From IMG/VR virus record IMGVR_UViG_2609460219_000007: 44,629 nt of DNA, one strand, 5' to 3'. The position numbers were made by a program, and so were the translations under genes. Under the pieces are notes generated by a model. It searched no databases and was not told the DNA's origin. It saw nothing but the letters and a program-made list of their open reading frames with translations. This DNA comes from a virus (taxonomy: Duplodnaviria; Heunggongvirae; Uroviricota; Caudoviricetes). Each line of letters starts with the position of its first letter. Position 1 is the first letter of the stretch. Below, in pieces: positions 20,829-33,676 of this stretch.

Positions 20829-21821
20829 ATGGGTTTTTCATCAGCCCGAAATTTGGGAAGGGACATATCGGCAGGATTTTCCCCACCACGTCGCATGCCG
20901 ATTTCGGAGGCTGTTAAAAAATTCATGCGTGTTCCCAAGGGGGCTGGTAACTCGGTGCCATGGGATCCTGAACTGACACCCTACATCATTGAGCCCATGA
21001 ACTGCCTGGCATCGCGTGAATACGATGCGGTGATTTTTGTTGGTCCTGCGCGAACAGGGAAGACCATTGGTCTGATCGATGGATGGATTGTCTATACCAT
21101 CGTTTGCGATCCTTCGGACATGCTCGTTGTGCAGATGACCGAAGATAAGGCCCGCGAGCATTCTAAAAAGCGCCTCGACAGAACGTTCAGAAGCAGTGCG
21201 GCGGTAAAGAAAAGAATGAGTCCACGTCGTAACGACAATAATGTCCATGATAAGACGTTCAGGGATGGCTCGTTCCTTAAAATTGGTTGGCCCTCGGTCA
21301 ACATTATGTCGTCGTCGGATTACCGGTTTGTCGCCTTAACCGATTACGACCGTTTTCCGGAGAATATCGACAGCGAGGGTGATGGTTTCTCCCTGGCCTC
21401 AAAACGTACCACCACATTTATGTCCGCCGGGATGACTCTGGTGGAGAGCTCGCCGGGACGTGACATCTGCGACAGCAAATGGCGACGTAAGTCGCCTCAT
21501 GAAGCGCCACCGACGACTGGTATTCTTTCCCTTTACAATCGTGGTGACCGCCGCCGCTGGTACTGGTCATGTCCGCACTGCGGTGAATATTTTCAGCCAG
21601 CCATGGATGCCATGACCGGCTACCGTAATGAACCGGATCCCTTTAAAGCCAGTGAGGCGGCGTATCTACTTTGCCCGCACTGCAGCGGCATTATCACTGC
21701 GGAGAAAAAGCGTGAGCTCAATAGTGCAGGAGTCTGGTTGCGTGAAGGTCAGGTCATTGATCGTAACGGCAACGTTTCCGGTGAACCGCGCCGCTCCCGT
21801 ATCGCCAGTTTCTGGATGTAG
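20829..21821 (+). CDS. Terminase large subunit (TerL/gpA-like), N-terminal ATPase portion; reading frame interrupted at 21819
   Basis: 330-aa ORF with Walker A-like VGPARTGKT and a CPHCGEY...CPHCSG zinc-finger region; ends ...RIASFWM* exactly at the left junction of the inserted element; the C-terminal portion resumes at 32564. Confidence 0.8.
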   Translation: MGFSSARNLGRDISAGFSPPRRMPISEAVKKFMRVPKGAGNSVPWDPELTPYIIEPMNCLASREYDAVIFVGPARTGKTIGLIDGWIVYTIVCDPSDMLVVQMTEDKAREHSKKRLDRTFRSSAAVKKRMSPRRNDNNVHDKTFRDGSFLKIGWPSVNIMSSSDYRFVALTDYDRFPENIDSEGDGFSLASKRTTTFMSAGMTLVESSPGRDICDSKWRRKSPHEAPPTTGILSLYNRGDRRRWYWSCPHCGEYFQPAMDAMTGYRNEPDPFKASEAAYLLCPHCSGIITAEKKRELNSAGVWLREGQVIDRNGNVSGEPRRSRIASFWM

Positions 21822-21982
21822 GGTACATTTCTTACCTGTTTTTATGTTCTGGTGTCGTTTTGTAGTCTTTTCAATGAGTTGTGATTTTTTGTGTTTCCTC
21901 TCTTTACTTGATAATGAGTTAGTTTATCGCTTGTTATCGACTTGAAAGGACTACATGACGGACTAAAAAATGAGGGCGATAG

Positions 21983-23156
21983 ATGCCGGTAAAGCCATTA
22001 ACTGTGACTGAAGTTAAGGGAATGAAACCACGTGAAAAGGACTATGCCGTTTATGATGGGTTCGGTTTATTGCTGAATGTGAGTAAAGCTGGTGGGAAAG
22101 TGTGGCGTTTCCGTTATAGCCATCCGATAACGAAGAAACGGCAGACATACACGATAGGGCGTTTTCCTGAATTCTCACTCGCGGAAGCACGGGAAGTACG
22201 TGATGAACTTCGGCGAATGATTGCACGTGGAGTTGATCCAGTGACAGAGAAGAAAAATCGTAAAATTGAGATGTCACTAAAAAATCTACAAACATTTGAA
22301 GCTGTTGCTAATGCATGGATCGCTTTTAAAAAGGGATCGGAATTGCGGAAACCTACGCTGTATAATATCGAATATGAAGTATACAAATATCTTGTTCCTT
22401 TCTTTGGTAAGTACAGCATAGAGAAAATTACAGCGCCAGTAGCTATTAATGCTCTGGATGCCGTATCCGATAAGAATGCGTTGCAAAAAAAANTTAATAT
22501 CAAGATTAAATGAAATTATGAATTACGCTGTAAATTGTGGAGCATTGAAAACGAATCCATTACTTAAGATAAAAACTGCATTCACAGGAAAGAAAAATAA
22601 ATCATTAGCTGCACTACCTGTTGAAAGATTGCCTGAATTTCTGAGTTGGTGGGATAGTGTGCCTCATAAGTATCAAATAGCTCACAATGCACTTTTATTC
22701 CAGATATTGACAATGGTCAGGCCAGGTGAGGCGATTAAAGCAGAGTGGTCCGAGATTGATTTTGATTCTGGCTTGTGGATTATCCCCGCGCATAAAATGA
22801 AATGCCATCGTGAACATGTTGTGCCTCTCTCATCACAGGCTATTAGAATCCTAAGAACAATGCAGGAAATAAAAAGAGGGCGTTATATATTTTTTTCCTC
22901 CAGAACAAAAGATGCTCCTATGGGAAAGAATACTATCAATACCCCAATTGCTGCCAGCAAGTTCAAAGGGATTGTAACGTTACACGGTTTTCGTTCGATG
23001 TGGAGTACGCTTTTAAATGAGGAGGGTTTTAACCCTGATGTTATTGAGGCTGCATTAGCACATAAAAGTGGTGATAAAATAAGAGATATTTATAATAGAA
23101 CTACTTATTTAGAACAACGCAAAATTATGATGCAATNGGGTAGGAGATTTTTTTGA
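21983..23156 (+). CDS. P4-type tyrosine integrase (apparent frameshift at an A-run containing N at 22493)
   Basis: Two overlapping ORFs (21983-22513, 22449-23156) that together read as one integrase: N-terminal arm-binding-type domain, C-terminal catalytic ...HGFRSMWSTLLNE...ALAHKSGDKIRDIYNR...; sits at the left end of the element. Confidence 0.8.
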
Positions 23157-23235
23157 TGAGGCGAGAAAAGGGGTAATTAATAGATCCGGTGGTAAGAAAG
23201 GTTTGAGAATAGTAAATGGTTGAGGAGTTCAGCAA

Positions 23236-31418: not shown

Positions 31419-31904
31419 ATGGATCGGGAACTGAAAAATCTGATGCTGAACATTAACCAGCTGGCGGCGATAGCGGGAATATGTCGCCAGACTGCGGCGG
31501 CAAGGCTGAAAAATATCCAGCCAGCCGGAGGACATGACAAGCTGAAACTCTATCGGGTGACTGACATTCTGACCTGTTTTCTTGATCTTCCCGTTCCGGC
31601 ATCACTGGAAGAAATGGAGCCACACGACCGTAAGGCCTGGTATCAGTCCGAACGTGAGCGCCTCAAGTTCGAACAGGAAACGGCGCAACTCATACCCGCC
31701 GATGATGTGCGAAAAGAGATGGCTATATGGGGAGAAATCGTAAGCGAGGAACTGGAAAAACTCCCCAGTATTCTGGCACGTGATGTTGGGCTTAAACCGA
31801 TGGCAGTAAACAGAGTGCAGTCAATTATTGACGATTTGTGTAATCAGATTATCAGCCGGATGGTAAAAAATGACGTAGTGAATGAGGTCGCAAAACAGGC
31901 ATGA
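31419..31904 (+). CDS. Terminase small subunit paralog (satellite TerS-like)
   Basis: 161-aa product from MDRELKNLMLNINQLAAIAG...; central region homologous to phage TerS (MEPHDRKAWYQSERERLKFEQETAQLIPADDV vs MEPKERKDWYQSENERIKLEKEQRKLIPVDEV); divergent N-terminus. Confidence 0.7.
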   Translation: MDRELKNLMLNINQLAAIAGICRQTAAARLKNIQPAGGHDKLKLYRVTDILTCFLDLPVPASLEEMEPHDRKAWYQSERERLKFEQETAQLIPADDVRKEMAIWGEIVSEELEKLPSILARDVGLKPMAVNRVQSIIDDLCNQIISRMVKNDVVNEVAKQA

Positions 31905-32188
31905 TAATGACCGAATCTGAAATACTGCGATTAATCCGCTGTGCTGGTGGAATTAGCCAGTTGGCTGACGAACAGGCCGCGCAGCCGGATACAGTCACCG
32001 CTGAAAATTACGCGCGTGTGGTGGCTGAGGTGATGCGCCGTGACGGTATTGAGCTTAACGGCGTGGATATGCGCAACATACGAACCAGAGTCCTTGAGTT
32101 GCTGGCATACCGTCGCCGTTCTCAACAACGGAGGGAGAGCGCGAAAAATACTTATCAGTGGAAGAAGCCGGAATGGTTGCGGCGGTAA
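31901..32188 (+). CDS. Hypothetical protein
   Basis: 95-aa ORF overlapping the terS-like stop (ATGA). Confidence 0.4.
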   Translation: MIMTESEILRLIRCAGGISQLADEQAAQPDTVTAENYARVVAEVMRRDGIELNGVDMRNIRTRVLELLAYRRRSQQRRESAKNTYQWKKPEWLRR

Positions 32189-32563
32189 TTTGTTGATATT
32201 CCTGATAGCGCAAAAGTGCGTTGGCTGGTGGGTGAGTTGCAGATCTGCAACTCGACCATGAAATTACGGAAACTACCCGTAGTTTGGGTAGTAAGAGTAA
32301 CACCCAGATTTTGGGGCTTACTTGCGATACCCAAATAAAGGGTATCGGTGGAAGAAATATCGTTTCTCATATGTGAGTTCCGAGAGCGGAATTCCGCCTC
32401 TGATTTGTCATTGTGATCATGCATAGCGGCAATAATTAATATTGCTTCCTTTTTTGCNTTTTTTATCGCTTAAGCAGGTACTAAATCTGGGACTATGTTG
32501 TAGGGGGCATAACTCAATAGTACCTTATAATCATTTAGTTACCTTTTATTTACTTCTTCCTGG

Positions 32564-33676
32564 ATGGAAGGGCCAGCTGCTGCGTATCAGACCTGGGCGC
32601 AACTGGTTTACAAATTACTGACTGCAGAACAGGAGTATGAAGCGACAGGAAGCGAAGAAACACTCAGGGCGGTTATCAACACCGACTGGGGATTGCCTTA
32701 TCTTCCTCGTGCCAGCATGGAGCAACGAAAAAGTGAACTGCTTGAGCAGCGGGCAGAGCCAGTTCCTTCCCGCAGTGTGCCGGATGGCATTAATTTCCTT
32801 GTGGCGACAGTGGATGTGCAGGCGGGACGTCATCGCCGTTTTGTGGTTCAGGTAACGGGCTATGGCAGTCGTGGCGAACGCTGGATTATTGATCGTTACA
32901 ACATCACGCAGTCATTGCGCAGTGACTGCGACGGGGAGAGCCAGCGAATTGATCCGGCCAGCTATCCGGAAGACTGGGATGTCCTGCTGACGGATGTTTT
33001 TCATAAAAGCTGGCCGCTGGCCTCCGATCCTTCTCAACAAATGCGACTGATGGCAATGGCGGTGGACTCCGGCGGTGAAGACGGGGTCACTGATAATGCC
33101 TATAAATTCTGGCGTCGTTGCCGTCGTGATGGCCTTGGTAAACGTATTTACCTGTTTAAGGGTGACAGCATCCGGCGCGCAAAACTGATCAGCCGTACAT
33201 TCCCTGATAACACCGGACGAACGGGCCGCCGGGCGCAGGCCGCAGGTGATGTGCCGCTCTGGCTTCTTCAGACGGATGCCCTGAAAGACCGGGTGAATAA
33301 CGCGTTATGGCGTGACTCGCCAGGTCCAGGCTATGTGCATTTCCCTGACTGGCTGGGGAGCTGGTTTTACGACGAACTGACGTATGAAGAGCGGAGCCGT
33401 GACGGGAAATGGAGTAAGCCGGGTCGCGGTGCCAACGAAGCTTTTGACCTGATGGTGTATGCCGAGGCTCTGGTCATTCTGCATGGATACGAAAAGATCC
33501 GCTGGCCGGATGCACCGGAGTGGGCGAGCCGGGAAACCTGGCTGGAGTGTGTCCAGGACAGTACCGAACCGTCATCCTCACCGGAACCGGTATCCACGCC
33601 TGTTAAAAAACAAAAACGGAAGAAAACAGTAACTGACGATGTTAACCCCTGGCTGACTTCCGGAGGATGGTTATGA
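32564..33676 (+). CDS. Terminase large subunit, C-terminal (nuclease) portion
   Basis: 370-aa ORF beginning MEGPAAAYQTW... at the right junction of the inserted element; joins the N-terminal portion as ...ASFWM|EGPAA...; followed by W and portal. Confidence 0.8.
   Translation: MEGPAAAYQTWAQLVYKLLTAEQEYEATGSEETLRAVINTDWGLPYLPRASMEQRKSELLEQRAEPVPSRSVPDGINFLVATVDVQAGRHRRFVVQVTGYGSRGERWIIDRYNITQSLRSDCDGESQRIDPASYPEDWDVLLTDVFHKSWPLASDPSQQMRLMAMAVDSGGEDGVTDNAYKFWRRCRRDGLGKRIYLFKGDSIRRAKLISRTFPDNTGRTGRRAQAAGDVPLWLLQTDALKDRVNNALWRDSPGPGYVHFPDWLGSWFYDELTYEERSRDGKWSKPGRGANEAFDLMVYAEALVILHGYEKIRWPDAPEWASRETWLECVQDSTEPSSSPEPVSTPVKKQKRKKTVTDDVNPWLTSGGWL

Follow-up and report, generated by a model that had tools for sequence, protein, structure and literature searches.

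A satellite of the Gram-negative PICI type, probably helper-embedded, splits the large terminase gene of prophages in Escherichia coli

Satellites that reside inside the prophages they exploit have been described as helper-embedded phage-inducible chromosomal islands (HE-PICIs; Tommasini, Mageeney and Williams, NAR Genom Bioinform 2023, PMC10111431). The survey that introduced them comprises 491 elements, which occupy 14 sites in counterparts of the late genes of lambda, and two of these sites, A:Terminase_1:132 and A:Terminase_1:246, lie in genes for the large terminase subunit (TerL). In experiments, the founding element, 11capE (Eco567.11.E_Phage_cap_E_80) of Escherichia coli NRG857c, excised about 2 h after treatment with mitomycin C, once the composite had replicated (PMC10111431). 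All published HE-PICI integrases fall in one clade, with an inclusion cut-off of 400 bits to the 11capE integrase (Int), and a doubled TGTATTGC motif flanking the centre of attP, about 81 bp away on the upstream side and about 132 bp away on the downstream side, was called unique to HE-PICIs (PMC10111431). Here we analyse the virus record IMGVR_UViG_2609460219_000007 (IMG/VR; Caudoviricetes), a stretch of 44,629 nt hereafter called the window, in which a satellite-like element splits the terL gene of a prophage. An earlier reading of this DNA from its letters alone (the sequence-only reading) took such an arrangement to be undescribed; this has to be withdrawn, since the HE-PICI layout, including the two TerL sites, was published in 2023 (PMC10111431).

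The locus also invites comparison with satellites at other kinds of sites and with integrative elements that interrupt genes of their hosts. EcCICFT073 and other Gram-negative PICIs, the subject of work by Fillol-Salom et al. in 2018 and 2019, reportedly occupy chromosomal sites and interact with their helpers only in trans. Satellite P4 integrates at a tRNA-Leu gene and depends on helpers of the P2 type. Regulated gene integrity, or active lysogeny, is exemplified by the skin element in sigK and the phage in comK; the concept is treated separately below.

The prophage terL gene is represented by two open reading frames (ORFs), one for the ATPase and one for the nuclease domain, whose profile matches abut at a single position, 644, of PHROG 15 (large terminase), so that the division of terL proposed by the sequence-only reading is borne out (Table 1). 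The interval it had proposed for the insert, 21812-32566, is likewise the exact span from the start of the attL core to the end of the attR core. The left junction reads …GCCAGTTTCTGGATG|TAGGGTACA… and the right one …TTACTTCTTCCTGGATG|GAAGGGCCA…. The 330-aa ATPase fragment terminates at a TAG codon (21819-21821) supplied by the satellite arm directly after Met330, and no Shine-Dalgarno-like sequence is visible upstream of the nuclease-half ATG (32564). The insertion point falls on the Phe-Trp-Met codons of an FWMEG motif, within SRIASFWMEGPAAA, at the boundary between the ATPase and nuclease domains of a gpA-type TerL. In-silico deletion of the insert together with one copy of the core yields an in-frame terL of 2100 nt that codes for 699 aa without a stop; the predicted attB in the rebuilt gene reads …AGTTT[C/T]TGGATGGA…, and the predicted attP junction of the satellite …TTACTTCTTC[C/T]TGGATGTAGGGTACATT…. 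An intron, an intein and a homing-endonuclease insertion were considered for terL and rejected, as the insert spans 10.7 kb, encodes an integrase and is bounded by att sites.

The rebuilt 600-bp junction has full-length matches of 100% identity in the uninterrupted terL of many complete E. coli genomes. A total of 1062 genomes contain 80% or more of it, and phages Tritos, HannyBb and cdtI match it at 98.5-99.5% identity. The split form, recognized by the junction between terL and int, was found in 87 of the 5426 complete E. coli genomes searched. The sequence-only reading had itself named the pitfalls of such a locus, namely an ordinary conserved part of the prophage, halves derived from different genes and an assembly chimera. 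The 32 N characters of the window, 11 of them within the satellite, do give it the look of a noisy draft. However, the same junctions recur in 87 closed genomes, the uninterrupted gene with an identical junction is found in more than 1000 complete genomes and in isolated phages, and the two halves rebuild a single gene; we therefore see next to no chance that the insert is a chimera or an ordinary conserved block of this prophage type (a moron). The insertion is precise and site-specific, and neither a chance arrangement nor an assembly artefact.

The Ns are spread singly, one about every 1.4 kb (e.g. 22493, 23137, 30229, 32458). For comparison we used the complete genome of the related E. coli A5 (NZ_CP028769), which is 100% identical to the window over a 1101-bp junction query and 98.9% identical over 23 kb (19448-42427), and in which the element is 10,721 bp long. 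Comparison with the closed genome showed the Ns at 22493, 23137 and 32458 to be inserted bases; alignment with the intact A5 gene indicates that the first two break the int copy of the window, and the N at 30229 coincides with the split of its protease-capsid gene. Both genes are intact in A5 (412 and 637 aa). The apparent frameshifts are hence artefacts, and a reading of them as decay was rejected, the cause being the Ns inserted in the window.

The first base of the core heptamer is C at both junctions of the window and T at both junctions of two other copies of the satellite (loci L003 and L004, the latter in a prophage of E. coli O157 that carries the Shiga toxin gene stx1a). Since this base tracks the helper allele at both junctions, as expected of a strand-exchange overlap, we take [C/T]TGGATG to be that overlap. 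Removal of the insert from the O157 Stx1a prophage likewise yields an in-frame TerL, of 707 aa, which is only 71.7% identical to that of the window, yet the local motif SRIASFWMEGPAAA is identical. Lambda gpA reads HIWTAYSP at this position and thus lacks the target site. Trp and Met are the only two amino acids with a single codon, and TGGATG can therefore not drift synonymously as long as the motif is conserved. This possibly explains the stability of the site among TerL genes of only about 72% identity, and that it allows one integrase to find its site in all of them is an idea open to experiment.

Analysis of the insert (Table 1) recovered the whole set listed in the sequence-only reading: an integrase, an AlpA-like protein, a Bro-N protein, a primase with iterons, a single-stranded DNA-binding protein (SSB), cos sites, and paralogs of the small terminase subunit (TerS) and of the capsid protein. 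Judged by these genes, their set and order are those of a Gram-negative PICI: the element falls in the 10-15 kb range, has int, alpA, primase and origin together with a packaging module, and has no lysis or tail genes. Pfam and PHROG scans and annotation yielded no tail, lysis, portal, connector or TerL gene within it, and the same scans found no homologues of Sid, Psu, Delta or Epsilon. An Rfam scan of the Bro zone for P4-type C4/isrK RNAs (CI RNA) returned nothing credible, and PADLOC matched no satellite ORF as defence cargo. The label "PICI/P4-like" used earlier consequently survives in part: the element is of the PICI kind and P4 fits as regards the integrase family, but Sid, Psu and Delta are missing. 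The integrase of P4 is of the same family (33% identical), and P4 likewise has an AlpA-type regulator and a primase-helicase and relies on a helper for cos packaging, whereas the features that define P4-like satellites (Sid, Psu, Delta, Epsilon/Ash, an alpha-type primase and CI RNA) are not found. Nor does it qualify as a capsid-forming PICI (cf-PICI), as it has only the protease-capsid fusion and the TerS paralog, and no portal, connector or TerL gene. EcCICFT073-type PICIs resemble it in their int-alpA pair, primase/origin module, hijacking of the cos site of a lambdoid helper and TerS-related protein for redirecting packaging.

Comparison with 11capE reveals the same order of four zones, namely int/alpA, Bro, replication (Icd-like, DUF4222, primase and SSB) and late, at a similar size of about 11 kb. 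The primases of the two elements are 90% identical, and the satellite contains a cos copy about 90% identical to that of its helper, as reported for 11capE. As in HE-PICIs generally, a late gene is split and is restored by removal of the element, and the satellite int, alpA-like gene and primase gene lie on the + strand, co-oriented with terS, terL and the portal gene of the helper. The integrase, on the other hand, is only 22-25% identical to that of 11capE and scores 87 bits against the 400-bit cut-off; the target is a gpA-type TerL gene, that of 11capE a capsid gene; and the late zone holds a protease-capsid fusion, a TerS paralog and two cos sites. The doubled TGTATTGC motif is absent from both satellite arms even with one mismatch allowed, whereas the same scan finds it in 11capE. 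The HE-PICIs at A:Terminase_1:132 and A:Terminase_1:246 are likewise satellites that split the large terminase gene of a helper, but their targets are HK97-type TerL genes (Pfam Terminase_1), with the cores aatatcacga and ttaccaa, and their integrases belong to the published clade. Thus, the element has the layout of an HE-PICI, and is set apart by an integrase outside the published clade, the lack of the doubled motif and a site that is not among the late-gene sites catalogued in the accessible part of the supplements.

The concept of active lysogeny, cited in both PMC10111431 and PMC7192596, supplies a further parallel, in that a gene is split by an integrative element and rebuilt by precise, timed excision. 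The difference is that here one mobile element splits a gene of another, and it is the satellite, not the cell, that would profit from the switch.

Together these observations make it likely that the insert is a Gram-negative-type PICI which lives as a helper-embedded satellite and excises to rebuild terL on induction. Its P4-family tyrosine integrase inserted it by site-specific recombination into the 7-bp overlap of terL. With the satellite in place the prophage can encode only the 330-aa ATPase stub, as the nuclease half has no visible ribosome-binding site; co-orientation with the helper and the truncation of TerL support the claim of the sequence-only reading that the helper can make no full-length TerL from its own gene until the element leaves. 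The steps of induction are inferred from this anatomy and from the published behaviour of 11capE. The helper repressor, early genes and Q would fire first, while the composite excises and replicates. Late transcription modified by Q, which in lambda makes the polymerase ignore terminators, would then run from terS through the terL stub into the satellite int and alpA-like genes, past the hairpins at 23453, 28915 and 31168. Int and the AlpA-like excisionase would remove the satellite and restore an intact terL, so that terminase would appear only once the satellite is free. The satellite would then replicate by means of its own primase and iteron origin. Its concatemers would be cut and packaged at the satellite cos sites with helper TerL, cos1 being read by the helper TerS and cos2 by the satellite TerS paralog, and the capsids may be built or resized by the satellite protease-capsid fusion.

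Table 1. Coordinates of helper and satellite features around the split terL gene, on the numbering of the window
Feature	Position	Strand	Evidence or remark
Helper cos region	20060..20304	+	cosN-like GGGCGGGAGCG then cosB, directly upstream of terS
Helper small terminase subunit	20263..20820	+	Pfam DUF1441 E 2e-44; PHROG 141
Helper terL 5' fragment (ATPase domain, 330 aa)	20829..21821	+	Pfam GpA_ATPase E 7e-81; PHROG 15 positions 334-644
attL core CTGGATG, probable 7-bp overlap	21812..21818	+	Same heptamer at attR; codons Phe328-Trp329-Met330 of TerL
Satellite left arm (P' arm of attP)	21819..21982	+	TTATCGC/TTATCGA tandem doublet 21924-21940; promoter-like site 21942-21971 ahead of int
P4/DUF4102-type tyrosine integrase (412 aa in clean copies)	21983..23223	+	Pfam Arm-DNA-bind_3 and Phage_integrase
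AlpA-like helix-turn-helix protein (67 aa)	23236..23439	+	PHROG 66 "excisionase and transcriptional regulator" E 9e-7; weak HTH_17 match
Strong terminator-like hairpin after alpA-like gene	23453-23473
Bro-N/anti-repressor-like protein (Bro zone)	23498..24079	+	Pfam Bro-N E 5e-18; PHROG 2593
Two leftward genes: hypothetical protein (147 aa in A5) and 64-aa Arc/RHH-like putative repressor	24296..24966	-	PGAP annotation of A5; PHROG 228 E 9e-6
Icd-like protein, 66-aa protein and DUF4222 protein, leading into primase gene	25106..25807	+
Primase-helicase (619 aa)	25804..27663	+	D5_N, DUF5906, Pox_D5; PHROG 864 E 1e-184
Putative satellite origin, CTGTTCACC iterons in direct and inverted copies	27666..27900	.	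Repeat families D3, D5, D9, D13
Small conserved protein (PHROG 1231) and SSB	27997..28616	+	Pfam SSB E 4e-15
Satellite cos1: cosN, helper-type cosB and dead (mutated) terS start	28649..28893	+	90% identity to helper cos over 237 nt
Terminator-like hairpin after cos1	28915-28931
ClpP-type prohead protease/major capsid fusion (637 aa in clean copies)	29246..31160	+	CLP_protease, Phage_capsid_4; PHROG 133
Satellite cos2: same cosN, different cosB	31186..31265	+	First 80 nt of helper cos region recur
Satellite TerS paralog (161 aa)	31419..31904	+	DUF1441 E 2e-35
Conserved 93-aa protein	31907..32188	+	PHROG 1561; also in related helper-embedded elements
Satellite right arm (P arm of attP)	32300..32559	+	Nearly invariant among three elements in different helpers
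attR core CTGGATG	32560..32566	+	Heptamer common to attL
Helper terL 3' fragment (nuclease domain, 370 aa)	32564..33676	+	Pfam GpA_nuclease E 1e-83; PHROG 15 positions 644-985

Integrase and left arm together were found in 90 genomes at 99 places, nearly all copies in terL, with two int copies in some genomes (e.g. ERL06-2442 and 2014C-4423). At least four prophage backbones carry the satellite: a Qin-like prophage (strain A5 and O121:H19), the Stx1a prophage of O157 FDAARGOS_293 (L004), a DLP12-region prophage without stx in O157:H7 3-5-1, and a further lambdoid prophage in ERL06-2442. Within the late region of the Stx1a prophage it is present in four complete O157:H7 genomes; alignments of this region with Sakai Sp15, EDL933 and other O157 strains break off at the junction, with no int after it. 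One Int accession (WP_000114064.1) occurs in two different helpers, and the same integrase is encoded in O145:H28, O45:H2 and O111 genomes. Serotypes that produce Shiga toxin are frequent among the carriers (O157:H7, O145:H28, O121:H19, O45:H2 and O111). Between alleles, int has a dN/dS of 0.085, and the 11 nucleotide differences in the alpA-like gene are all silent, with no amino acid difference. Such purifying selection on both genes points to a functional integration module. The insertion is reversible in principle and recurrent, and it truncates TerL.

Several points weigh against excision as proposed here. The predicted attP junction was unmatched in public collections of viral and metagenome contigs, a result which is uninformative rather than negative, and the satellite is present in none of the phage records searched. 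Transcriptional read-through, the timing of excision, the choice between cos sites and the remodelling of capsids are inferences. Some helpers have other lesions, such as the stop in the tail tube gene of A5 and the capsid frameshift of the O157 Stx1a prophage, and some satellite copies may be stranded. TerL supplied in trans by other lambdoid prophages could weaken the "hostage" effect on the helper that the sequence-only reading had envisaged, and the authors of the precedent recovered virions of neither partner (PMC10111431). The unmatched attP junction and the lesions, along with truncated int remnants that still sit in terL in a few genomes, would also fit a dead end, in which the satellite no longer excises, has permanently inactivated a decaying prophage and is inherited vertically. 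We consider this improbable, given the strong purifying selection on int and the alpA-like gene, the full-length int in 83 of the 90 carrier genomes, and the spread over varied backbones with TerL proteins only 72% identical. Moreover, near-identical prophages exist with and without the satellite, and this, combined with the variety of backbones, requires repeated recent integration.

Homologues of the integrase form a graded series in Enterobacterales, and we examined the genomic context of nine of them, with 41-76% identity, eight of which lie in the late operon of a prophage. The closest (P0004, 75%, Salmonella enterica) uses the same gpA site: it follows a truncated GpA_ATPase ORF and shares the core and the first 16 bases of the arm. 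A 63% relative in Salmonella (P0009) follows a truncated Peptidase_S78 ORF, and a remnant of Phage_capsid is found at the far end. In E. coli, a 59% relative (P0014) splits a PHROG 1072 neck/tail gene into parts of 149 and 59 aa, between tail-completion and baseplate genes of a lambda-like operon; at locus L090 the parts of a PHROG 1072 gene flank the embedded element at 9437-9886 and 20540-20719. Other insertions are found after a truncated PF09950 major capsid gene (P0044, 51%, Raoultella); after Pa193_gp24 and before cement and capsid genes (P0042, 50%, E. coli); after a Terminase_2 TerS gene, at the expected start of TerL (P0035, 49%, E. coli); after Phage_portal_3 (P0060, 45%, Pantoea); and after DUF6651 in a head module (P0116, 41%, E. 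coli). The ninth (P0085, 41%, Pectobacterium) is chromosomal. The splitting of a gene was verified at the sequence level for gpA and PHROG 1072 only. The replication modules of elements with related integrases vary among D5_N primase, DUF927 and AAA_25 types (loci L090, L092, L093-L097, L099 and L102). P0014 and P0035 are only 25-26% identical to the 11capE Int, and the accessible part of the supplements to the HE-PICI paper holds no match for Phage_portal_3, Major_capside or Pa193 and no site labelled E_Phage_capsid or C_Peptidase_S78.

A scan of species-representative genomes with Int retrieved only relatives of at most 41% identity, which served as an outgroup; at 33 of 37 loci of these distant relatives, which are 33-41% identical and for the most part come from outside Enterobacterales, a tRNA or tmRNA gene stands immediately upstream of the integrase. 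The integrase might therefore normally use a chromosomal site of the tRNA type and have reached terL by accident, and off-target events have indeed been reported for HE-PICI integrases (PMC10111431); the chromosomal Pectobacterium relative would also accord with this. Yet at least 87 of the 90 int-bearing E. coli genomes have the terL junction, no chromosomal copy was seen, and the FWMEG site is also that of the 75%-identical Salmonella integrase, core and arm sequence included, all of which renders an accidental insertion very unlikely. In a small, crude neighbour-joining tree the P4 Int (33% identical) lies closer to the clade of the satellite Int than does the 11capE Int (22%). On balance we favour the view that these integrases constitute a second satellite clade, nested in the tRNA/tmRNA-targeting P4/CP4-57 family, which acquired its tropism for prophage late genes independently; this assessment draws on a small sample of nine relatives and a crude tree.

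What appears new at this locus is hence the gpA-type TerL site at FWMEG together with an integrase outside the published clade. The accessible part of the supplements contains no match for "gpa", for the CTGGATG att core or for four carrier-genome accessions, an absence that is not absolute, and every terminase-labelled entry in it is Terminase_1_132 or Terminase_1_246. A literature search on the terL site and on a satellite in the terminase of an Stx1 prophage returned only the 2023 HE-PICI paper and citations of it. Helper embedding, then, does not seem to be confined to the single published integrase clade, since integrases of a separate clade on the P4 side seem to have moved likewise from tRNA/tmRNA targets into the late genes of prophages, which points to strong and repeated selection for embedding. 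If so, helper embedding is convergent and far more widespread than that clade suggests, and surveys that start from the 11capE integrase will underestimate the number of such elements. A packaging enzyme of the helper that depends on the departure of its satellite would constitute a strong form of control of one parasite by another, and such gating of terminase would operate in medically relevant prophages, the Stx1a phage of O157:H7 among them, where the satellite may influence the yield of Stx phage and transduction. Annotating such a terminase as pseudogenised could wrongly mark a prophage as defective, as the gene may be restorable.

The two satellite cos sites are directly oriented, 2537 bp apart, and flank the protease-capsid gene; in the diverged O157 Stx1a copy (L004) they lie at 19904-20002 and 22441-22616, with the same 2537-bp spacing. 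The helper cosN, GGGCGGGAGCG, is lambda-like, and the linear records of phages Tritos and cdtI begin at the position aligned with the helper cos. The satellite site that resembles that of the helper is the first in the window and the second in the O157 copy; dual cos sites may provide compatibility with two terminase specificities. The satellite TerS paralog resembles the TerS of the window's helper in its C-terminal half only (49%), its N-terminal half being different; aligned end to end with the TerS of the O157 Stx1a prophage, it shows 49% identity. Between the protease-capsid fusions of satellite and helper the identity is 56%. In O157 FDAARGOS_293 the protease/capsid fusion of the Stx1a prophage itself (L004, 26162-27398) is annotated as frameshifted, with the satellite paralog intact. 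The satellite copy might substitute for it.

Among the regulatory features, the 67-aa AlpA-like protein is a probable excisionase and regulator. The TTATCGC/TTATCGA doublet is tentatively regarded as an arm-type integrase binding site; the TTATCGC motif is doubled on one arm but occurs only once on the other, and shows no conservation in the Salmonella relative. Both leftward genes diverge from the replication operon, with promoter-like sites at 24746-24718 (-) and 24960-24989 (+).

The helper in the window looks complete from int through the tape-measure gene, and its Q antiterminator gene lies at 12998-13780. The lambda-type tail tube gene is open in the window (38967-39785) and has an internal stop in A5 (L001, 37716-38459), and helper integrity thus differs between carriers. 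The early region of the helper further contains a low-GC (35%) gene on the minus strand (8860-10194), which codes for a 444-aa FRG-domain protein. Its match to the PADLOC candidate defence family PDC-S15 (E 7e-99) suggests that this is likely a prophage-borne anti-phage gene.

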